A DNA stretch of 64,000 nt, taken from Clostridia bacterium (GTDB taxonomy: Bacteria > Bacillota > Clostridia > Oscillospirales > Butyricicoccaceae). The position numbers and the translations under genes are program-made. Below are positions 15,749-63,737 of this stretch, one piece after another. Each line of letters begins with the position of its first letter. The first letter of the stretch is position 1. Location of the stretch: positions 32,017-96,016 of the forward strand of contig JAWXUP010000002.1 of assembly GCA_044426345.1 (NCBI GenBank). The letters run 5' to 3'. The notes under the pieces were generated by a model. The model had not been told where the DNA came from and did not search any database. It saw nothing but the letters and a program-made list of their open reading frames with translations.

Positions 15749-18124
15749 TTACTTGAATGTAATAACCGTTACTCCATCTTCGCCTTCTCCATAACGTCCT
15801 GCACGATATGATTTTATATGACGATTTGTACGTAAATAGTCGCGGATTGAGTTTCTAAGAACTCCAGTACCTTTACCGTGAATGATGTAGCCTTCTTCAA
15901 TATTTGCTAAAATCGAACTCGAAATAAAGCTTTCAACTTCGTCAATGCCAGCGACAACGTCCATACCACGTATATCCACTTCTCGAGAAATTGCCTCGTT
16001 TCTAAGCTGACGTGTAGGTGGTGCTTTTGGAACATTACGTTGTTTTGGTTTTGGTGAATTGATAGGTTTTTGCGTAAACAATTCAACCTCGTCGATATTT
16101 GCAGTGATTTTTAAAATGCCAGCTTTACATACAAGTTTTCCTTGTTTGTCTGGTGGCGTTATAACTGTCGCTATGTTATTTGTTTTAAGTAGACGAATTT
16201 CAACACCAACTTTAAGTTGGTCGGCTGTAGGGACAACTGCATTTTTGCGACGTTGTTTTTGTAGGCTTTTAAGTTCTACTTCGCTTAGGTTTTTATTTAT
16301 TTCTTGACGTGCTTTATTAATATTAGCAGATTTCACGTCTTGCTTTGCAAGTTTTTTCAGTCCTTCAATTTCATCAAAGGCAGCACGAGAGGCACGTTTT
16401 GCATCATCAAGCATTCTTGTAGCTTGAAGTCTGCCTTTTTCGACCATCGCCTCGTATTTTTCGTCGATGGTTTTTTCTTTTGCCTCAGCACGCATTAACG
16501 CATTTTTAGCGATAACACGCATTTTTTCGGTTTCCTTTTTGAATTCTTGAGCTTGAATACGTTCATGTTCAAGATTTGCAAGAATGGTTTCAAAACGGTT
16601 ATGTTCACTTGATAGCAACGATTTTGCACTGTTTATAATTTCGATTTGCAATCCGAGTTTATTCGAAATTTCAAAAGCGTTTGACTTACCTGGTGAGCCG
16701 ATGATTAAGTTATAAGTAGGGCTTAACGTTTCCATATTAAACTCAAACGATGCATTTTGTACGCCAGATGTTTCTAAAGCGTATAATTTTATGTCAGAAT
16801 AGTGAGTTGTAGCAAGTATTCTGCATGAAAATTTACGTGCGTGTTCGATTATTGCAACAGCAAGCGCTGAGCCTTCTAGTGGGTCAGTACCTGAACCAAG
16901 TTCGTCGAATAGCAATAGGTCACCTTTTTCGCATACATCTAATATAGATATGATGTTTGTCATATGTGATGAAAATGTAGAAAGTGACTCGCCGATACTT
17001 TGTTCGTCACCGATATCAGCGTAAACCTTGCCTAAAATATAGATTTCACTACCAAAATCAGCAGGAATATGCATACCCATACTCGCCATCATCGTAAGTA
17101 ATCCAAGTGTTTTTAAACATACTGTTTTACCACCAGTATTAGGTCCTGTGATGATAAGCGTGTCAAATTCAGCACCTATTTCAAGCGATACTGGTACAGC
17201 AGTTTTACGCTCTAATAGTGGGTGAACTGCGTTTATAAGATTAGTGTATCCGTTATCAGATAAAATTGGTTGATAAGCGTTCATATCGACAGATAATTTT
17301 GCTTTTGCGAAGATAAAATCAAGAGCAGTTAGCATTTCAAAGTTCAAACGCAGACTTGTACCGATTTTTTTAACGTCAATAGAGAACATTTTTAAAATAC
17401 GTTCTATTTCCTTTTGTTCGTCATCAAGCAAGATGCGTAGTTCGTTATTCGCCTCGACAACTTCGGTAGGCTCGATAAATAAAGTGTTACCACTACTCGA
17501 AACATCGTGAATTAACCCTCGAACGTCACCTTTATGCTCGGTTTTTACAGGCACAACAAAGCGATTGTTACGTATTGTGATTAAATTTTCTTGCAGATAA
17601 TTATTCTCTTTTGAAATCATCTGATTTAAGTATTCACGAGTTTTTGAATTTAGACTACGGATTTTTCTGCGAATGTCAAAAAGTTCGCTAGATGCCGTGT
17701 CTGCTAGTTCTTCTTCGGAAACTATAGCGTTAGTTATCGCATTTTCCAAGCGTGTATCACCGTGGAGTAGTGAAAAATATCTATCAAGCATAGCAGAACC
17801 AGTAGAAACATCATCGTGATAAGATGAAAGTTCTCGAACCGTACGTAAAAGCAGTGCGATTTGTAGTAATTCCTCGCAAGAAAGCACACCAGAAAGTTCA
17901 GTACGTTTGATTGAATTTTCAGGGTCTACAACTCCGTAAAAACTTGGTGCACCTTGTGTGTCGAGCATAGTTTTGGCTTGGGTTACCTCATCTAAAAGCA
18001 GTTTTACATCTATATTATCATAAATTGGAGCAAGATTTGACACGATGAGCTTTGCACCGTCTGTTACGCATAAATCTTGCAAAAACAATAGAATTTTGTC
18101 AATTTCAAGTTTGTTCTTTTGCAT
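15749..18124 (-). CDS. mutS2: Endonuclease MutS2 (MutS ATPase core plus C-terminal Smr domain)
   Basis: Walker A GPNTGGKT, a long coiled-coil, and Smr end IIHGKGTGVLR; 791 aa. Confidence 0.95.
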   Translation of the reverse strand: MQKNKLEIDKILLFLQDLCVTDGAKLIVSNLAPIYDNIDVKLLLDEVTQAKTMLDTQGAPSFYGVVDPENSIKRTELSGVLSCEELLQIALLLRTVRELSSYHDDVSTGSAMLDRYFSLLHGDTRLENAITNAIVSEEELADTASSELFDIRRKIRSLNSKTREYLNQMISKENNYLQENLITIRNNRFVVPVKTEHKGDVRGLIHDVSSSGNTLFIEPTEVVEANNELRILLDDEQKEIERILKMFSIDVKKIGTSLRLNFEMLTALDFIFAKAKLSVDMNAYQPILSDNGYTNLINAVHPLLERKTAVPVSLEIGAEFDTLIITGPNTGGKTVCLKTLGLLTMMASMGMHIPADFGSEIYILGKVYADIGDEQSIGESLSTFSSHMTNIISILDVCEKGDLLLFDELGSGTDPLEGSALAVAIIEHARKFSCRILATTHYSDIKLYALETSGVQNASFEFNMETLSPTYNLIIGSPGKSNAFEISNKLGLQIEIINSAKSLLSSEHNRFETILANLEHERIQAQEFKKETEKMRVIAKNALMRAEAKEKTIDEKYEAMVEKGRLQATRMLDDAKRASRAAFDEIEGLKKLAKQDVKSANINKARQEINKNLSEVELKSLQKQRRKNAVVPTADQLKVGVEIRLLKTNNIATVITPPDKQGKLVCKAGILKITANIDEVELFTQKPINSPKPKQRNVPKAPPTRQLRNEAISREVDIRGMDVVAGIDEVESFISSSILANIEEGYIIHGKGTGVLRNSIRDYLRTNRHIKSYRAGRYGEGEDGVTVITFK

Positions 18125-18125
18125 T

Positions 18126-18878
18126 TTATCCTCCTATGGATTTATAAAAATCGAGAGTTTTAAATTTATAGTCGGTCTGTGTTAGTACGAAATCTTCGCA
18201 CAAATTATAAAGTATATTAAAGCCACGCTCACCCAAATTAAATGAGTAAAGCTTGTCTAAATCGCAAGTTAAAATGTGATACATTGCGTGTAAAACACCT
18301 TGTGTTATAGGCATTACGTGTGGCGAATTTATGTCTATTAAGCACTCCGAACAGCAAATACAACCGTTTATTGTATCAAAATAAGGCTGGGCGAGTCCAC
18401 TTTTTTTATCGCAAATTCCACATCGGTCTATTACAGGGTGAAAACCAGAGTGAGCGATTAATCGAAGTTCTAACGCACATTTTACGAGTTTCGGAGTTTT
18501 TTTCTGTTTTGCAACAGCGTAAAGCGAGGAAATAAGCGTTCGAGTTACTTCGATATTTACGTGGTCCTCATCGCATAATTTTGAGGCTAGTTGCACAAAA
18601 TAACTGCAAATTGCAAAATGTTCGATGTCTTCGGTTATCTCGAAAAATCGTTCGATAAGCAGTACATCATTTAATATGTATCTGTTTTTATTTGTAAAAA
18701 GTTCGAACTCGGCAAAGGCAAAAAGTCGAGTTTTATTAGCCAGAGGAGCATTTTTACGTCGAACACCTCTGCAAAGTACGGAAATTTTACCGTGGTCATA
18801 GGTGAGGAGCGTTATGTACTTGTCGTGTTCTGAAAAATCAGTCTCAGAAATTATAATGCCTTTGACAGTTATGTTCAT
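18126..18878 (-). CDS. recO: DNA repair protein RecO
   Basis: OB-fold N-terminus and a Cys4 zinc motif (CGICD...CCSEC); lies in the conserved era-yqzL-recO context. Confidence 0.9.
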   Translation of the reverse strand: MNITVKGIIISETDFSEHDKYITLLTYDHGKISVLCRGVRRKNAPLANKTRLFAFAEFELFTNKNRYILNDVLLIERFFEITEDIEHFAICSYFVQLASKLCDEDHVNIEVTRTLISSLYAVAKQKKTPKLVKCALELRLIAHSGFHPVIDRCGICDKKSGLAQPYFDTINGCICCSECLIDINSPHVMPITQGVLHAMYHILTCDLDKLYSFNLGERGFNILYNLCEDFVLTQTDYKFKTLDFYKSIGG

Positions 18879-18975
18879 ATTTCACCTTGATTTTTATTTA
18901 CATTTTGTTATATATCTTGATTTTGAAACTTTTAGTTAAATTGTTTATTTTGAAATCACAATAACACAATAATAT

Positions 18976-19495
18976 GTAGGGGCGAACTGTGTTCGCCCGT
19001 CATATTGCGTGCATTGAATTTAATATTTTACGTAATTTTATTGCGTGTCACGGTACGTCGAGGACGCTGTACCATTACATTTTGCGTAAGATAAACCAAA
19101 TTTCAGCAAATAATTGTAGGGGCGAACTGTGTTCGTCCGTCAAATTGCGTGCATTGAATTTAATATTTTGCGTAATTTTATTGCGTGTCACGGTACGTCG
19201 AGGACGTCGTACCACTACATTTTGCGTAAGATAAACCAAATTTCAGCAAATAATTGTAGGGGCGAACTGTGTTCGCCCGTCATATTGCGTGCATTGAATT
19301 TATATTTTACGTAATTTTTATTGCGTGTCACGGTACGTCGAGGACGCCATACCATTACATTTTGCGTAAGATAAACCAAATTTCAGCAAATAATTGTAGG
19401 GGCGAACTGTGTTCGCCCGTCAAATTGCGTGAATTGAATTTAATATTTTACGTAATTTTATTGCGTGTCACGGACGAACACAGTTCGCCCCTACA
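18976..19495. repeat. Tandem array of four 140-bp REP/BIME-like units bounded by inverted GTAGGGGCGAAC / GTTCGCCCCTAC termini
   Basis: Unit starts at 18976, 19116, 19256 and 19396, an exact 140-bp period. Each unit is a type-1 hairpin, a linker and an inverted type-2 hairpin; the last unit closes with an inverted type-1 copy at 19471-19495. Confidence 0.9.
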
Positions 19496-19512
19496 GGTCA
19501 TAGCAAAATTTA

Positions 19513-19680
19513 TTACTGCACACCATCTGCATCTAAAAAAATTAGCTTTTCGCCTTGTTTCATATTACTGATTTGCACCATATTTTTGTTATATTCATCT
19601 ATATTTTTACTCTTTGTATAAATTAAATATGCCATTGGGTCACCAGTGGACTCAAAAACGTTCCAACAGATTTTCTCCAT
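19513..19680 (-). CDS. yqzL: YqzL-family small protein (55 aa), absent from the ORF track
   Basis: GAGGTG RBS then ATG; MEKICWNVFESTGDPMAYLIYTK... matches the W-x-V/F-x-x-TG-x-x-x-YL signature. It occupies the canonical position between era and recO. Confidence 0.75.
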   Translation of the reverse strand: MEKICWNVFESTGDPMAYLIYTKSKNIDEYNKNMVQISNMKQGEKLIFLDADGVQ

Positions 19681-19771
19681 ATATATCACCTCATACTATT
19701 ATTTTGAGTCGCACGTGGTTTTATATACGATGTAAAATTTGTATTGTTGTTTTAAATTTATTATATAATAT

Positions 19772-19943
19772 GTAGGGGCGAACTGCGTTCGTCCGTCATA
19801 TTGCGTTCGTTGAATTTATATTTTACGTAATTTTTATTGTGTGTTACGGTACGTCGAGGACGCCGTACCCTACGGTATTTGCGATGATTTTTTGCGTGGA
19901 AAAATTTTTCTGTATGGCACGGACGAACACAGTTCGCCCCTAC
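19772..19943. repeat. Single REP mosaic unit (type-1 forward, type-2 inverted, type-1 inverted)
   Basis: GTAGGGGCGAACTGCGTTCGTCCGT ... ACGGTACGTCGAGGACGCCGTACCCTAC ... ACGGACGAACACAGTTCGCCCCTAC. Confidence 0.9.
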
Positions 19944-19953
19944 AGTTTAAATC

Positions 19954-20844
19954 TTACTCATCATACCCAAAGTTTCTCATTTGGAATAAATTATTTCTCC
20001 AGCCTTCTTTAACTTTTACCCAAAGTTGAAGATTTACCTTGCCTTCGAACATTTTTTCTAGCTCAAAACGTGCTGTAGAGCCGATTTTTTTAAGAGATGC
20101 ACCTTGTTTTCCTATAACGATACCTTTATGGCTTTGTTTTTCACAGAAAATAGTCGCTTCGATATCAACAATTCCGTTAGGACGTTCGCTCATACGTTCG
20201 ATATATACAGCAACTCCGTGTGGAATTTCTTTTTCTAGAGAGTGCAACATTTTTTCACGGATAATTTCAGCTACAAGCACTTTTTCTGGTTGGTCTGACA
20301 CCATATCGTCTGGGAAAAGAGCAGGGCCTTCGAAAGCGTTTTTCTTAAATTCTTTTAGCAGTGGTTCTAAACCAATTTTATTTATAGCACAAACTGGAAC
20401 GATAGCGTTGAAATCGTGTGCTGCGCCATAAACTGCCATAACTTCTAGCAATTTTTCTGGTGCAATCGTATCCATTTTATTGATAACTAAAATAGCTGGC
20501 AACTCGAATTGTTTGATTTTGTCGATTAATTCTTGTTCTGGGTCACCGATATTAGCGATTGGTTCTACAACTAGCGCTACAGTGTCAACGTCAGAAACAG
20601 TTTCGTTTACGATTTTTACCATAAAATCACCTAAGCGACTTTTAGGGCTGTGAAGACCTGGTGTGTCCATAAAAACGTATTGCGTATCGTCTTTGTTTAA
20701 AATACCAGTAATTCTTGTACGAGTTGTTTGTGGTTTGTTTGAAACGATAGCAACTTTTGAGCCTACAAGCGCATTAGTTAAAGTAGATTTGCCAACGTTT
20801 GGACGTCCTACGATTGAGATAATCGAAGATTTTGTGATGTTCAT
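19954..20844 (-). CDS. era: GTPase Era
   Basis: G1 GRPNVGKST, G3 DTPG, G4 NKMD, and a C-terminal KH domain. Confidence 0.95.
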   Translation of the reverse strand: MNITKSSIISIVGRPNVGKSTLTNALVGSKVAIVSNKPQTTRTRITGILNKDDTQYVFMDTPGLHSPKSRLGDFMVKIVNETVSDVDTVALVVEPIANIGDPEQELIDKIKQFELPAILVINKMDTIAPEKLLEVMAVYGAAHDFNAIVPVCAINKIGLEPLLKEFKKNAFEGPALFPDDMVSDQPEKVLVAEIIREKMLHSLEKEIPHGVAVYIERMSERPNGIVDIEATIFCEKQSHKGIVIGKQGASLKKIGSTARFELEKMFEGKVNLQLWVKVKEGWRNNLFQMRNFGYDE

Positions 20845-21294
20845 TTATGTTCTCCTTTTGAAGATAAACCACAGGTTTATCAACGTTAATATTATTAAAA
20901 TTCCTATATAAATCACGGTTAAATTCGCTAAAATTATACCTATTTTCGGTGTAAAAATTACAAGTCCGATAATAACACAAGAAATAGCACAAACCAATAC
21001 GGCAGCAGCTGCAATATCTTTAGCGTTTTTTATGAAAATATTATATTCAAAGCCAGTTCGGTTGCATAGACATTCTATCGCTGTGTTTAACAGCTCAGCA
21101 GAAAGCACTTGCGCAAAACACATCATCATAATTGCAAATTCTATTGTAGAAATTTGAGCAAGATGTGAAAAAATCAGTACATACGCAATCGCAACAAGGT
21201 GTATTCGGAAATTTCGCTCGTTATTTACGCAATATTTGATACCATCAAGTGCAAAACCGAAACTTTTTCTTAGTTTTCTTATTCCTCGTTTCAT
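20845..21294 (-). CDS. dgkA: Diacylglycerol/undecaprenol kinase (DgkA family)
   Basis: N-terminus SFGFALDGIKYCVNNERNFRIH plus 3 TM segments; lies between ybeY and era. Confidence 0.85.
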   Translation of the reverse strand: MKRGIRKLRKSFGFALDGIKYCVNNERNFRIHLVAIAYVLIFSHLAQISTIEFAIMMMCFAQVLSAELLNTAIECLCNRTGFEYNIFIKNAKDIAAAAVLVCAISCVIIGLVIFTPKIGIILANLTVIYIGILIILTLINLWFIFKRRT

Positions 21295-23290: not shown

Positions 23291-23393
23291 GCTCACTCCG
23301 TTAAAATAAAATTTTGCCACCTATCTCTTAGAGGGAGGATTTTTCCCTTGGCTCCCTGTCGAGGGAGCTGTCGTCGCAATGACTGAGGGAGTT
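23291..23393 (-). repeat. Decayed copy of the GGGAG/CTCCC multi-hairpin element (module C)
   Basis: Its reverse complement aligns along its length with 50280-50387 (AACTCCCTCAGTCA..GCTCCCTCG..AGGGAGCCAAGG..CCTCCCT..GGTGGCAAAAT..ACGGAG). Confidence 0.8.
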
Positions 23394-23417
23394 CACGCAC
23401 AATAAACAAACCGAATT

Positions 23418-23733
23418 TGTAGGGGCGAACTGCGTTCGTCCGTTTCATTATATAAAATACCACATAATAAAAAACATCGAATTTGTAGGGTACGGCGTCC
23501 TCGACGTACCGTTTGCCATATAATAAATTTGCACCATTTCAATTTTAATCGGACGTATTGATTTCGACGGGCGAACGCAGTTCGCCCCTACAGATAAATG
23601 GTGGTTTTGCAATTAATTTGAACAAATTTTATTATGTGCACGGGTCGTCGAGGACGCCGACCCCTACTGGTAACATTATTTTTTATATGGTTATATTTTA
23701 TTACACGGCACGGGCGAACACTGTTCGCCCCTA
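23418..23733. repeat. REP cluster of five hairpin modules in the divergent yqfC/ylbJ region
   Basis: Type-1 forward 23418-23442, type-2 forward 23484-23511, type-1 inverted 23566-23590, type-2 variant inverted 23639-23666, type-1 inverted 23709-23733. Confidence 0.9.
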
Positions 23734-23812
23734 CAGAACATCACACAATATATTTATGCAAAAATACTACTTAAATTACCGTTTTTTCATATATATTAAG
23801 CGAGGTGGTTTG

Positions 23813-28847: not shown

Positions 28848-28947
28848 TTAGGGGCGAACTGTGTTCGTCCGTGCCATATAATAAATTTGCACCATTTCAT
28901 TTTAAACGTACGCATTGGTTTTGACGGACGACCACATATCGCCCATA
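28848..28947. repeat. REP inverted doublet (type-1 forward, linker L1, degenerate type-1 inverted)
   Basis: TTAGGGGCGAACTGTGTTCGTCCGT-GCCATATAATAAATTTGCACC...-ACGGACGACCACATATCGCCCATAT; starts 4 nt after the stop codon. Confidence 0.85.
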
Positions 28948-28982
28948 TAAAACAGATATTTTAAAAAAATGTAAAAAAACAC

Positions 28983-31566: not shown

Positions 31567-33963
31567 ATGAAACATCGTATTCAAGATATTGCAAAAGATT
31601 TAAAAATGGCTAAAAAAGACGTGCTAGATTTACTAAAAGATGTAAGTCCTAACGCACAATCTATTGATGATGATACTCTAAATTACTTACTTGAAAAAGT
31701 TACAAAAAATAACCAAGTTACTGATATGGCACAAGCACTAGAGGCACAAAAATCAGCTAAACCTGTTGAGAAAAAAGAGGCTAAAAAACCAGCACCAAAA
31801 GCTGAGGAAGTGGCAAAACCTGTAGCTAAACCTGTAGCAAAACCTGAGGTTAAACCAGCACCAAAACCACAACAAAAACCTCAAGCGAAAGCTCAACCAA
31901 AACACCAAGTGTTACGTCCAACTCCGAAAGAACAACCTGTTACTGGTGGCGTTACAATTAAAACAGACGAAACTCCAGCTACACCAAATATGCGTGTAAT
32001 TGACACTCGTTCTGGTGGTGACACAAACCTTGCAAAATATGATGATAAAATCGACAACTTAGTTCCAGATAAAGCATCAAAAATGCAACAAGGTAAGCAA
32101 AAAATCGTTAAAAAATCTGATTCTCGTAGCAGATACGGTCAAAATAAAAAACGTCAAGAAGACCAAGAACGTATGAAAAGACTTGCTGCAATGCAAGCTA
32201 AAACAAAAGCTACAAAAGTTCACGTTCAAATTCCAGAAGAAATCGCAGTTGGTGAGTTAGCTCTTCGTTTAAAACGTACAGCAGCAGATGTTATCAAAGA
32301 ACTTATGAAACTTGGTGTTATGGCATCTATTTCTCAAGTTATCGATTTTGATACAGCAGCTTTGGTTGCAGAAGAAATGAACGGAATTGTTGAAAAAGAA
32401 GTATTTGTAACTATCGAAGAACGTCTATTTGACGAAACTGATGATAATGCAGAAGACTTAGTATCAAGAGATCCAGTTGTTGTTGTTATGGGTCACGTTG
32501 ACCACGGTAAAACTTCACTTCTTGATGCTGTTCGTAAAGCAAAAGTTGCAGATGGCGAAGCAGGTGGTATCACTCAACATATCGGTGCTTACCAAACTGA
32601 AATCAACGGTCAAAAAATCACATTCCTTGACACTCCAGGACATGCTGCGTTTACTTCAATGCGTGCTCGTGGTGCTCAAGTTACCGACATCGCAATCTTA
32701 GTGGTTGCGGCCGACGACGGTATTATGCCACAAACAATCGAGGCAATTAACCACGCAAAAGCTGCTGAAGTTCCAATTATCGTTGCAGTTAACAAAATGG
32801 ATAAAGAGGGTGCAAACCCAGATAGAATTATGCAACAACTTACAGAATACGAACTTGTTCCAGAAGAATGGGGTGGTTCTACAACTGTATGTAAAATCTC
32901 TGCAAAATTCGGTAAAGGTATCGATGAATTACTAGAAATGGTACTTTTAACTGCTGAAGTTGAAGAATTAAAAGCAAATCCAAACCGTCAAGGTAAAGGT
33001 ACTGTAATCGAGGCAAAACTTGATAAAGGTCGTGGTCCAGTTGCTACACTTTTAGTTCAAAATGGTACGCTTAAAACTGGTGATATCATTATCGCTGGTA
33101 CATCTGTTGGACGTGTTCGTGCTATGACAGATGATTTAGGCAATAAACTTGAATTTGCAGGTCCTTCTATGCCAGTTGAAGTTATCGGTTTAGCTGAAGT
33201 TCCATCTGCTGGTGAATTATTCTATTGTGTTGAAAACGAAAGAATGGCTCGTGAACTTGCAGAACAACGTAAAGATGACGAAAAAACTGCTAAAAATAAC
33301 GCATTACAAAAAGTTACACTTGATAATCTGTTCTCTCAAATTGAACAAGGTTCTATCAAAAACTTAAATATCATCGTAAAAGCAGACGTTCACGGTTCTA
33401 CAGAAGCACTTAAAGCATCGCTTGAAAAATTACATCAAGAAGACGTTCGCGTTCGTGTAATTCACTCTGGTGTTGGTGCGATTTCTGAATCAGACGTTAT
33501 GCTTGCAGCAGCATCTGGCGCTATCATCGTTGGTTTCAACGTTCGTCCAGAAAGAACAGCATATGACGTTGCATCTGCACAAGACGTAGATATGAGAATG
33601 TACAGCATTATTTATCAATGTATCGAAGAAATCGAAACAGCGATGAAAGGTATGCTTGCAATTAAATACAAAGAAGTTGTGCTTGGTCACGCTGAAGTAC
33701 GTCAAGTATTCAAAGTTACTGGCGTTGGTACTATCGCTGGTGCGTATGTACAAGATGGTAAATTATCACGTAACGCAGAAGTTCGTGTTGTTCGTGATGG
33801 TATCGTATTCCACGAAGGCAAACTAAATTCGTTAAAACGTTTCAAAGACGATGCGAAAGACGTTGCAGCAGGCTATGAATGTGGTCTAGGTGTTGAAGAT
33901 TACAACGACATCAAAGAAGGCGACATCATTGAATGTTACATTATGGAAGAAATTAAAAGATAA
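31567..33963 (+). CDS. infB: Translation initiation factor IF-2
   Basis: G domain [21 protein letters not shown]; a Pro/Lys/Ala-rich N-terminal region. Confidence 0.97.
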
Positions 33964-33974
33964 AATTATAAATG

Positions 33975-34440
33975 GGGGACGAACTGTGTTCGTCCCTTAT
34001 GTTTAAATTTGGTGGAATTTGTCACTAAATTTATTGTGCGAAAGCTCCCTGCACGCACAAAAAAACAACGCACCTTGTAGGGGCGACCTGTGGTCGCCTG
34101 TGACCACGATATAAAATATCACCATTTTGAAAAAACAACACACCGTAGGGGACGGCGTCCTCGACGTCCCGTTTGCCGTATAATAAGTTTGCAAAAATTA
34201 TCTTTAACGGACGTATTGGTATGACGGGCGAACACAGTTCGCCCCTACAAAAAAACAACGCACCCTTGTAGGGGAGACCTGTGGTCGCCTGTGACCACGA
34301 TATAAAATATCGCCATTTTGAAAAAAACAACACACCGTAGGGGACGGCGTCCTCGACGTCTCGTTTGTCGTATAATAAGTTTGCAAAAATTACGTTTAAC
34401 GGACGTATTGGTATGACGGGCGAACACAGTTCGCCCCTAC
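33975..34440. repeat. REP mosaic between infB and rbfA, including a roughly 192-bp unit duplicated in tandem
   Basis: Headless type-1 hairpin 33975-33997. Then twice: type-3 GTAGGGGCGACCTGTGGTCGCCTGTGACCAC, type-2 variant GTAGGGGACGGCGTCCTCGACGTCCCGT, linker L1, and type-1 inverted. Starts are 34077/34268, 34145/34338 and 34224/34416. Confidence 0.9.
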
Positions 34441-34502
34441 TGTGCAAAAATATCATTATATCATCATATAATCAACATCATAAAAACTAGGAGGAAAACC
34501 TT

Positions 34503-34877
34503 ATGGCTAAAAGAATAGATAGAATTAACGAAGAAGTACTAAAAGCATTATCAGAATTATTAAGAACAGTAAAAGACCCACGTATGGCACACGGATTAGT
34601 GTCAATTAGGCATTGCGAAGTTACAAATGATTTAAGCTTTGCTACAGTTTATGTAAGCGTACTCGGCACTGAAAATGACGGTAAAGAAGTTATGAAAGCA
34701 TTAAATTCTGCGAGTGGATATTTACGTCGCGAATTAGGTCGCAAAGTTAAACTTCGTCACACACCAGAGCTTATTTTAAAACTTGATGATTCTATAACTT
34801 ACGGTGCTCACATCTCAAAAATCATTAACGATTTAGATATCAAACACGACGATGAAGAAGGTGAACTTGATGATTAA
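34503..34877 (+). CDS. rbfA: Ribosome-binding factor A
   Basis: AGGAGG RBS; RIDRINEEVLKALSELL...VSIRHCEVTNDLSFATVYVS. Confidence 0.95.
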   Translation: MAKRIDRINEEVLKALSELLRTVKDPRMAHGLVSIRHCEVTNDLSFATVYVSVLGTENDGKEVMKALNSASGYLRRELGRKVKLRHTPELILKLDDSITYGAHISKIINDLDIKHDDEEGELDD

Positions 34878-38866: not shown

Positions 38867-39042
38867 TATAGGTTGGGTTAAAATGTGTTTATCCGTGACT
38901 GCACAAAATCAAATACTATTTGTCAAGTTTTTTAAAAACTTGCTATATCCAAACGAGTAGTTTGGTCGCTATCGCAATAGCGAAACACTCCTTTTTCATC
39001 GAATTTTATATTATTTTACGGGCGAACACTGTTCGCCCATAC
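38867..39042. repeat. Decayed REP inverted doublet
   Basis: The left arm TATAGGTTGGGTTAAAATGTGTTTATCCGTGAC is an AT-mutated type-1 copy. The right arm ACGGGCGAACACTGTTCGCCCATAC is nearly intact. Confidence 0.65.
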
Positions 39043-50165: not shown

Positions 50166-50520
50166 GTAGGCTATGTTCTTACGTGACACGAAATAAAATG
50201 TAAATGCACTTTGTAGGGTACGGCGTCCTCGACGTACCGTGGTACGCAACCTAAGTATTATCGTGCAAAAATATCGTGTAAACTCCCTCAGTCACTGCGG
50301 TGACAGCTCCCTCGGAGAGGGAGCCAAGGAAAAAAGCCTCCCTGTCGAGGGAGGTGGCAAAATCTTTGATTTTGACGGAGGGAGTTTACACGCAATAAAA
50401 TATCAATGCACTTTGTAGGGTACGGCGTCCTCGACGTACCGTGTACGCAACCTAAGTATTACCGTGCAAAAATCAAAATCAACGCACAAAATATGACGGA
50501 CGAACACAGTTCGCCCCTAC
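50166..50520. repeat. REP mosaic with a roughly 202-bp direct duplication flanking module C
   Basis: Decayed type-1 copy at 50166. Type-2 GTAGGGTACGGCGTCCTCGACGTACCGT at 50213 and 50415, each with about 45 nt of identical flank. Type-1 inverted copy ends at 50520. Confidence 0.9.
50280..50387 (+). repeat. Module C: a roughly 108-nt GGGAG/CTCCC multi-hairpin element (candidate structured RNA or MITE)
   Basis: Closing helix AAACTCCCTC/GAGGGAGTTT encloses four hairpins: GTCAC-TGCG-GTGAC, GCTCCCT-CGGAG-AGGGAGC, CCTCCCT-GTCG-AGGGAGG, CAAAATC-TTT-GATTTTG. Confidence 0.7.
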
Positions 50521-52780: not shown

Positions 52781-52825
52781 ATATTTTACGTATAGGTGTC
52801 ACGGACGAACACAGTTATCCACTAC
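52781..52825. repeat. REP fragment (partial linker L2 plus degenerate type-1 inverted copy) abutting the stop codon
   Basis: ATATTTTACGTATAGGTGTC-ACGGACGAACACAGTTATCCACTAC. Confidence 0.75.
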
Positions 52826-60748: not shown

Positions 60749-60772
60749 ACGCAAATACCCCAAAAGTGTGAA

Positions 60773-60805
60773 ATAAGTAAAAAATAAGTAAAAAATAAGT
60801 AAAAA
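60773..60805 (+). repeat. Three tandem 11-bp AT-rich repeats (ATAAGTAAAAA)
   Basis: Copies start at 60773, 60784 and 60795. Confidence 0.85.
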
Positions 60806-62498: not shown

Positions 62499-63707
62499 AT
62501 GACTTATAACAAAAAAAGCGTAGAAGACATTGACGTAAAAGGTAAAAAAATTATTGCACGTTGTGATTTCAACGTACCACAAGATGCCGATCTTAACATC
62601 ACAGATGATAAAAGAATCACAGCATCTCTTCCAACAATTAAATATTTAATCGAACAAGGTGCAGCTGTTGTACTATGTTCACACTTAGGTCGTCCAAAAG
62701 GCGAAGCTAATCCAAAATATTCTTTAGCACCTGTTGCAAAAAGATTATCAGAACTTCTAGGACAAGAAGTAGCTCTAGCTGCTGACGTTATTGGCGAAGA
62801 TGCTAAAGCAAAAGCTGCGGCACTAAAAGCAGGCGAAGTTATGTTACTTGAAAACGTTCGTTTCCACAAAGAAGAAGATGGCAAAGATGAAGTTGCTAAA
62901 GAAGCTTATGCAAAAGAACTTGCAGCTTTAGTTGGCGAAGATGGTATCTATGTAAACGATGCTTTCGGTACTGCTCACCGTTCTCACGCATCTACTGCTG
63001 TATTATCTAAATTCTTACCAGCTGTTTGTGGTAAATTAATTCAAAAAGAACTTGAAATTATGGGTGGCGCTTTAGAAGCTCCAGTTCGTCCATTCGTTTC
63101 AATCTTAGGTGGCGCTAAAGTTTCAGACAAAATCGGCGTTATCACAAATCTTATAGAAAAATGTGACACAATCGTTATCGGTGGTGCTATGGCTTATACT
63201 TTCGCAAAAGCTGCTGGTGCTGAAATCGGTAAATCTCGTTGTGAAGAAGATAAATTAGATCTTGCAAAATCAATCGTAGAAAAAGCTCAAGCTAAAGGCG
63301 TTAAATTATTACTTCCTGTAGACTCTGCTTGTGCTGCTGACTTTGCAGACGTTGCTCCTACAATGTGCGAAACTAATGCAATCCCAGCAGAATTAATGGG
63401 CCTTGATATCGGACCAAAAGCTATTGCTGAATACTGTCAAGCTGTTGCAGATGCTGGTACTGTTGTATGGAACGGACCTATGGGCGTTTTCGAATTCGAA
63501 AACTACGCTGCAGGTACAAAATCAGTTGCTGAAGCTATCGCAAACTCAAATGCTATTTCAATCATCGGTGGTGGTGACTCTGCTGCAGCTGTTGAAATCT
63601 TAGGTTTTGCTGATAAAATGACTCACATCTCAACTGGTGGTGGTGCATCTTTAGAATTCTTAGAAGGCTTAGAACTTCCAGGTATTGCTTGTCTACTTGA
63701 CAAATAA
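62499..63707 (+). CDS. pgk: Phosphoglycerate kinase
   Basis: GGAGG RBS then ATG 62499; [15 protein letters not shown] and GGGDS motifs. Confidence 0.97.
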
Positions 63708-63737
63708 GTAAAAAGTGTTAAAAATAAGTAAAAAAGG

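Follow-up and report, generated by a model that had tools for sequence, protein, structure and literature searches.

Why should two gaps in a normally compact gene cluster be filled with hairpins, and where might these hairpins have come from? The question is raised by a 64,000-nucleotide stretch of DNA from a Clostridia bacterium (assembly GCA_044426345.1, contig JAWXUP010000002.1; genome G+C content, 34.9%), the whole of which was analysed and is called here the window. A 520-bp block of repeats (18976-19495) lies in it between yqzL and recO. With a probability of about 80%, this block is a cluster of repetitive extragenic palindromes (REPs) of the kind known as bacterial interspersed mosaic elements (BIMEs), and in form it is closest to the BIME-2 of Escherichia coli. 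The gap that holds it measures 634 nt (18879-19512) and the neighbouring era-yqzL gap 273 nt (19681-19953), as an earlier note on this DNA had reported. The same note had counted nine hairpins between the cistrons, but the two gaps contain eight and three, i.e. eleven.

The block was characterized by a tandem repeat at 18968-19473, which Tandem Repeats Finder described with a period of 140 bp, 3.6 copies, 94% matches and a score of 924, and which was also recovered as repeat family D1/D2 and by comparison of the units. Both direct reading and hairpin matching placed the unit starts at 18976, 19116, 19256 and 19396. Each unit opens with a type-1 hairpin (GTAGGGGCGAACTGTGTTCGCCCGTC), continues through a 49-nt linker into a type-2 hairpin in inverted orientation and closes with a tail of 37 nt. 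In other words, about 103 bp of it form a REP doublet (type-1 forward, linker, type-2 reversed), whose GTAG heads face outward, and a 37-nt spacer completes it. Three full units are followed by the first 78 nt of a fourth, in which an inverted type-1 copy (19470-19494) replaces type-2, so that the whole block is bracketed by GTAG...CTAC. Units 1 and 2 differed by 6 substitutions, and units 1 and 3 by 2 substitutions, a 1-nt deletion and a 1-nt insertion, both indels being located in the linker; the same two indels, together with 6 substitutions, separated units 2 and 3. The earlier note had correctly given the unit starts, the order of the parts, the inverted termini and a difference of about six positions or fewer between full units, and the recent amplification that it deduced from their near-identity fits a recent tandem duplication. 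Its "exact" fourfold array stood as a 140-bp tandem repeat, but not as an exact one (94% matches), nor as one of four units (three plus 78 nt).

The two hairpin types were not equally well preserved in the array. All five type-1 copies were intact and began with GTAG. The first, at 18976-19001 (plus strand), has an 8-bp G+C stem and a 3-nt loop, and the type-1 hairpin folds as DNA at -9.2 kcal/mol (z -5.9). The copies of units 2 and 3 are at 19116-19141 (plus strand; one C>T in the 3' arm) and 19256-19281 (plus strand; hairpin matching). The type-2 copies were all degenerate, with a common head mutation (GTAATGG or GTAGTGG instead of GTAGGG) and one private transition each in the stem. They are located on the minus strand at 19050-19078 (GTAATGG head and one stem mutation; -4.5 kcal/mol, versus -8.8 kcal/mol for canonical type-2), 19190-19218 (GTAGTGG head) and 19330-19358 (hairpin matching). 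Every unit has thus accumulated changes of its own, and type-2 is decaying within the array. The terminal doublet (19396-19494), made of a forward type-1, the same 49-nt linker and a reversed type-1, folds as a single long hairpin (DNA fold, -30.9 kcal/mol, z -8.8).

The smaller gap contains a separate three-REP element (19772-19943), formed by a forward type-1 (19772-19796), a canonical reversed type-2 (19846-19873) and a reversed type-1 (19919-19943). Positions 19255-19353 and 19771-19869 were 93% identical. The two linker indels of unit 3 are also found in the 19772-19873 part of this element, which points to exchange between the two neighbouring gaps. In addition, open reading frames (ORFs) of 54-100 amino acids cross the array (18989-19571, plus strand; 19075-19379, minus strand). 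They owe their existence solely to the lack of stop codons in several frames of the repeat; REP-coded strings, GTSRT and CRGELCS among them, occur in these ORFs, which an annotation would list as hypothetical proteins.

The hairpins of the block belong to a family that is dispersed over the whole window. Type-1 was matched 16 times at no more than 3 mismatches and type-2 nine times, versus no match for either in 100 shuffles, which excludes a chance origin. A third variant, type-3 (GTAGGGGCGACCTGTGGTCGCC), folds at -8.2 kcal/mol. When type-3 and degenerate copies are counted, about 30 hairpins were present, or roughly one per 2 kb, all grouped in eight intergenic clusters (18976-19495, 19772-19943, 23419-23734, 28848-28948, 33973-34440, 39018-39042, 50213-50520 and 52801-52825). 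In most copies a GTAG head precedes a G+C stem, an arrangement that is the hallmark of REPs. Type-1 (GGGCGAAC/GTTCGCCC) and type-3 (GGGCGACC/GGTCGCCC) differ by paired compensatory changes in both stem arms, and type-2 variants likewise have compensatory stems (GGTACG/CGTACC, GGGACG/CGTCCC and GGGTCG/CGACCC); the stem itself, beyond the plain sequence, is therefore maintained.

The clusters are mosaics in which REPs alternate in orientation and share part of their linkers; in three-REP elements, the outer type-1 copies are 147-148 nt apart, start to start. A second tandem array was detected by Tandem Repeats Finder at 34057-34440 (192 bp, two copies, 95% matches). Its unit comprises a forward type-3, a forward type-2 variant and a reversed type-1, and the array lies between a gene ending at 33963 and one starting at 34503; a 141-amino-acid ORF covering it (34031-34456, minus strand) is probably spurious. 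Five REPs make up the cluster at 23419-23734, which separates yqfC (start 23249, minus strand) from the divergently oriented plus-strand gene next to it; this gap is about 500 nt long versus about 94 nt in a relative (L116). REPs are unusual in divergent promoter regions of E. coli. Further repeated modules were observed beside REP heads, such as GAGGGAGTTYACACGCAMAATAAA (23379-23418, 34040-34076 and 50388-50414), as well as an 89-nt inverted repeat of 72% identity (23308-23396 and 50278-50366), so that the mosaics comprise more than hairpins.

To describe the distribution of these hairpins beyond the window, one genome per species was scanned for type-1 and metagenomes were scanned for type-2; both copy numbers are lower bounds. 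The exact type-1 sequence was found in at least 115 stretches of other genomes, belonging to Oscillospiraceae, Ruminococcus (including R. flavefaciens isolates), Acutalibacteraceae, Christensenella, Bulleidia and Lachnospiraceae. Among the matches listed, which came from DNA of 25-61% G+C, most type-1 copies were paired with an inverted one 40-70 nt away, although copies also occurred alone and in all orientation patterns. A pyrimidine preceded GTAG in 178 of the 193 copies listed, and the flanks were otherwise unconserved. No protein family was recurrent beside type-1 at the 115 loci listed, which shows that the hairpin does not belong to a gene cassette. Type-2 was present in at least 120 metagenome stretches from the human gut, termite gut and rumen. 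The exact type-1 was also observed in a few metagenome-assembled genomes labelled Zoogloeaceae, Helicobacteraceae, Zixibacteria and Coriobacteriales (L001, L002, L033 and L104), which reflects either spread across phyla or binning error; the Zoogloeaceae-labelled contig (L001, JAITSU010000057.1) has 61% G+C and nine copies in 8 kb.

At three loci (L034, L083 and L041), type-1 was located inside a gene. The proteins of L034 and L083 matched the NCBIfam family NF047646, "REP-associated tyrosine transposase" (RAYT), with E-values of 1.8e-21 and 1.3e-18, respectively, and exhibited the motifs PNHLH, WQ and YIEHNP. A profile built from 18 homologs of the L034 clade had a single match in the PDB, 4ER8, which is the TnpAREP of E. 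coli (E 1.2e-10). The L034 gene contains type-1 twice, in frame and inverted: GTAGGGGCGAACTGTGTTCGCCCG codes for VGANCVRP before the HUH motif, and its reverse complement codes for GRTQFAPT directly past it. At E <= 1e-10 there were at least 1991 homologs; of the best 120, 108 had both peptides, and some had been named "REP element-mobilizing transposase RayT" by their sources. In five RAYT genes whose proteins were 45-70% identical, the REP DNA was kept at 0-3 mismatches out of 25, and the two in-gene copies were 145-208 nt apart. The 28-nt type-2 sequence occupied the same two loops in a sister RAYT clade, in which it codes for VGDGVLDVP and GTSRTPSPT. The likeness to E. coli REPs and BIMEs that the earlier note had drawn is thus borne out by the same sequences within RAYT genes of other genomes.

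Several other RAYT genes with in-frame inverted REP pairs were observed besides those of L034 (4294-4764) and L083 (623-1159), first in L124, L127 and L128, then in L147, L159, L179, L180 and L233; in general, the in-gene REP DNA was almost invariant while the proteins diverged. The REP-coded peptide was tandemly duplicated in some genes (P0043, P0045 and L233). As for REPs around the gene, a doublet abuts the 3' end of the RAYT gene in Acetanaerobacterium elongatum (L127); those of L034, L124 and L128 were internal only.

From these data, the following history can be proposed. The REPs would be non-autonomous, a RAYT (TnpAREP, an HUH/Y1 enzyme) recognising the hairpins that they form in single-stranded DNA. 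One REP, or a doublet, would have landed just past the yqzL stop codon and would then have been amplified locally, either through RAYT-mediated strand transfer or through slippage or unequal recombination between neighbouring doublets. The doublet and its 37-nt spacer would have been duplicated head to tail until 3.6 copies were present, the last of them being a type-1/type-1 doublet. In vitro, BIMEs are cut and recombined by the TnpAREP of E. coli, which is able to add units (Ton-Hoang et al. 2012, PMC3333891). Moreover, in BIME-2, two REP subtypes (y and z2) alternate in orientation within tandem arrays whose copies are conserved at a locus and whose copy number varies among strains (PMC3333891).

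Some results weigh against this account. Plain replication slippage accounts for the tandem copies without any RAYT, and the copy number rests on a single assembly. Given the damage to the type-2 heads and stems, the array may no longer serve as an active substrate. The NF047646 scores, 76.6 bits for L034 and 67.3 bits for L083, were just under the curated cut-off of 80. No RAYT gene was found in the 64-kb window by motif regular expressions or tblastn, and for this reason we only infer that this genome encodes a cognate RAYT and that a RAYT made the array. On the side of transcription, no terminator-like site (a G+C hairpin followed by a T run) was detected on either strand of 18000-21000, and promoter-like matches were at chance level (13 found versus 11.3 expected).

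A bolder version of this history, which we consider doubtful, is that the RAYT genes of the clade carry their own REP seeds and that the lineage of the window is in the middle of a REP burst that splits the era-yqzL-recO-mutS2 transcript. If each RAYT gene carried such seeds along, in the form of an inverted in-frame pair of its cognate REP at two fixed surface loops, this would account for the occurrence of the same 25-nt REP in gut Clostridia of 25-61% G+C and maybe in other phyla. The burst would then be remodelling essential operons, inverted type-1 pairs giving rise to 26-bp RNA helices.

To determine how the locus looks without the block, we compared it with seven relatives, four represented by longer contigs (L116, L117, L120 and L122) and three by contigs of only 0.9-2 kb (L249, L250 and L252). 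The order yqfC-yqfD-ybeY-dgkA-era-yqzL-recO-mutS2 was kept in the four longer contigs. A look-up with the exact RecO sequence of the window gave no record, and the only identical RecO in the protein collection was that of the window's own contig, with its spacers of 273 nt (3 REPs) and 634 nt (8 REPs). The next, 84% identical, was that of L249, in which the yqzL-recO spacer measures 78 nt and contains one REP-like hairpin, the era-yqzL spacer being off the contig. REPs were absent from the spacers of L116 (RecO 76% identical; era-yqzL 63 nt, yqzL-recO 57 nt), L252 (76%; yqzL-recO 61 nt), L250 (74%; yqzL and recO overlapping), L117 (67%; 59 and 114 nt), L122 (62%; 62 and 13 nt) and L120 (61%; yqzL not called, era-recO spacer of 259 nt). 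In addition, the three hairpin types were absent from the 10-12 kb of L116, L117, L120 and L122. The insertion into a normally compact cluster claimed by the earlier note thus agrees with yqzL-recO spacers of 0-114 nt in five relatives (RecO 62-76%) and era-yqzL spacers of 59-63 nt in three.

The hairpin of L249, at 97-123 of a 930-bp contig (aTAGGGGGAGATCTGTTCTCCCCTAC; -7.1 kcal/mol), resembles a "double-foot" REP. Its TAG is the yqzL stop codon, and it occupies the same spot as the 520-bp array. Occupancy of this site among related species was therefore 0, 1 or 8 hairpins. Since relatives with a RecO of 61-76% identity have no REP and the relative at 84% has one hairpin, the block is a lineage-specific expansion at a site that is either ancestrally occupied or a preferred target.

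The hairpins could be of consequence for the transcript they interrupt. Compared with shuffled sequences, the RNA of the yqzL-recO spacer was very strongly structured (-177.8 kcal/mol, z -8.6), as was that of the era-yqzL spacer (-79.2 kcal/mol, z -7.2), in which the two type-1 copies make a 26-bp helix around type-2; in general, inverted type-1 copies were predicted to pair as perfect 25-26-bp helices. The GTAG head of the first REP lies 10 nt past the era stop codon and 18 nt past that of yqzL, and a distance of about 3-20 nt separates the upstream stop codon from the start of the first REP in four or five of the eight clusters. REPs are known to stabilise upstream mRNA in E. coli; according to Liang, Rudd and Deutscher in 2015, those within about 15 nt of a stop codon reportedly lower expression. 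The hairpins and helices added to the era-yqzL-recO-mutS2 transcript could hold up 3' exonucleases, interfere with translation termination or be cut by RNase III, for which the type-1:type-1 helices could be candidate substrates by their length. Any such action on the RNA would lower recO-mutS2 expression relative to era or uncouple the two, and a putative dosage or stability effect of this kind is plausible.

It is a further step to regard the array as a selected regulatory device, in which hairpins and 26-bp helices would have been retained because they adjust recO-mutS2 relative to era/yqzL, whether by blocking decay, by being cut by RNase III or by slowing translation termination. The strong structure of both spacers, the position of the first REPs just past stop codons and the hairpin that the closest relative (L249) also has there, overlapping the yqzL stop codon, would all suit such a device. 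However, these elements recur at eight intergenic sites that are unrelated to each other, including a divergent promoter region; in relatives, REP-free spacers of 0-114 nt are sufficient, and the type-2 copies of the array are decaying. We consequently regard a selected device as unlikely. Because the elements occur in many unrelated contexts and relatives lack them, any effect on the host is probably an incidental consequence of the array and not the cause of its presence.

The number of tandem copies might also be an artefact, i.e. a repeat collapsed or expanded during assembly of a metagenome contig. There is a single contig, RecO being found on only one contig of the protein collection, and 140-bp repeats are near the length of short reads. 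Every unit nevertheless has private substitutions, and one has indels, which indicates that the copies were assembled separately; moreover, at other positions of the window the assembly contains another array and many clusters of this family. An artefact is accordingly improbable.

Less probable still is a miniature inverted-repeat transposable element, with the outer type-1 copies as terminal inverted repeats moved by a DDE transposase and a later internal duplication. Although the array and the 19772-19943 element are each bracketed by 25-nt inverted copies, no target-site duplication was found in the flanks of the array (...ACAATAATAT / AGGTCATAGC) or of the 19772-19943 element (...TATATAATAT / AGTTTAAATC). 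Each "terminal repeat" is itself a GTAG-headed palindrome that occurs elsewhere as a solitary copy or in any orientation, and type-1 was found within RAYT genes and not beside DDE transposases.

The idea that the clusters are decayed fragments of RAYT genes, their linkers being old coding sequence between two in-gene REPs, has in its favour the 147-148-nt spacing of outer type-1 copies, which resembles the 145-208 nt of RAYT genes, and tblastn alignments anchored on the REP peptides that looked suggestive, but it is the least credible of the four and was rejected, since with these peptides masked the RAYT sub-profiles scored 1.3, 0.1 and 1.4 bits in six frames over all eight clusters, below the shuffled-control means of 2.2, 1.3 and 2.4 bits. 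Two other candidates were discarded: a CRISPR array, because the sequences between the hairpins are themselves repeated, and an intrinsic terminator, because no T run follows a hairpin on either strand of 18000-21000.

Every gene from yqfC to mutS2 is carried by the minus strand. Around the two gaps are recO (18126-18878; Pfam RecO_N and RecO_C), which lies downstream of the array on the minus-strand transcript, a small yqzL-like gene (19513-19680) and era (19954-20844; Pfam MMR_HSR1 and KH_2). RecO, Era, MutS2, DgkA and YbeY were confirmed by Pfam; the yqzL-like gene scored 21.8 bits for Pfam YqzL, under the 27-bit cut-off, and was identified by synteny with a small ORF in relatives. Upstream of yqzL, a block at 19700-19745 on the minus strand (ATTTTACATCGTATATAAAAC) was conserved in relatives (L116, 5755-5800; L250, 40-100; L252, 325-375) and may be a promoter or leader of yqzL-recO; the 19772-19943 REP element sits between this block and the era stop codon.

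Searches of the window for other features gave little. Rfam at gathering thresholds and a tRNA scan of the whole window found nothing, and the 140-bp unit had no match in plasmid or phage collections. Two kinds of short repeats were also observed: a perfect 11-nt tandem repeat, unrelated to the REPs (AAATAAGTAAA, 3.2 copies, 60771-60805), with a related copy 2.9 kb away (63702-63735), and in-frame tandem repeats of 12/24 nt at 31796-31884, within a 798-amino-acid ORF (31567-33963), whose units (e.g. GCAAAACCTGTA) translate to motifs rich in Ala, Lys and Pro.

To our knowledge, what is known of REPs and BIMEs is almost wholly proteobacterial. REP and BIME clusters, tandem amplification of BIMEs, RAYTs and in-frame REPs within tnpAREP genes of subclass 2.4 (Quentin et al. 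2018, PMC6006769) have already been published. A survey of GTAG/CGTC REPs (PMC3733652) makes no mention of Firmicutes or Clostridia, and the type-1 sequence string was not found in the literature searched. The novelty lies in the setting and in this particular family, namely a REP-rich, low-GC, uncultured Clostridia genome with BIME-2-like arrays inside a conserved operon, as well as the match, at the level of sequence, between each of the two REP types and the pair of REPs found within the genes of a large RAYT clade associated with the gut. Through their sequence, the REPs described here can be connected with a RAYT clade that counts at least 1991 proteins, most of which were recovered from gut and rumen metagenomes, and they offer a second, distant system for studying RAYT-driven REP spread and amplification; the presence of a cultured isolate, Acetanaerobacterium elongatum, in this clade makes biochemistry feasible. 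On the practical side, such arrays break assemblies and yield spurious ORFs in annotation.

Among known repeats of Firmicutes, the BOX, RUP and SPRITE elements of Streptococcus pneumoniae are modular and intergenic, with a tandem-variable module that folds in mRNA; we know of no GTAG-headed palindrome in them and of no link to a Y1 enzyme or RAYT. Group 4 of the RAYTs of Bertels et al. 2017 is said to correspond to subclass 2.4. The RAYT clade would belong to this subclass (PMC6006769) on its motifs only; both have NH[IFV]H, WQ and YIxxNP motifs and in-frame REPs in the gene, the subclass is scattered over several phyla, and "double-foot" REPs exist in both, as in L249. By contrast, the in-gene REPs observed here occupy two fixed sites, before and just past HUH, as an inverted pair of the same REP, and their type, either type-1 or type-2, is specific to a clade.

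The inverted pairs also recall the REP doublets forming hairpins (REPINs) of Pseudomonas fluorescens (Bertels and Rainey), in which inverted pairs of the same REP fold as one hairpin, as the terminal doublet does at 19396-19494 and as most type-1 copies listed from other genomes would, being inverted pairs. The amplified unit of the array is, in contrast to a REPIN, a mixed type-1/type-2 doublet that is unable to form a single long hairpin. BIME-2 arrays with y and z2 REPs were reportedly described by Bachellier et al. With these, the block shares two REP subtypes in alternating orientation, GTAG heads, defined linkers, a tandem doublet, near-identical copies at a locus, occupancy that differs among related genomes and a position between co-directional genes of an operon. 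It differs from them in its REPs, which are unrelated in sequence and shorter (8-bp stem, 3-nt loop), in its period of 140 bp, in its host, a low-GC Clostridia bacterium, and in the linked RAYT clade, which has REPs within the gene and not just around it.

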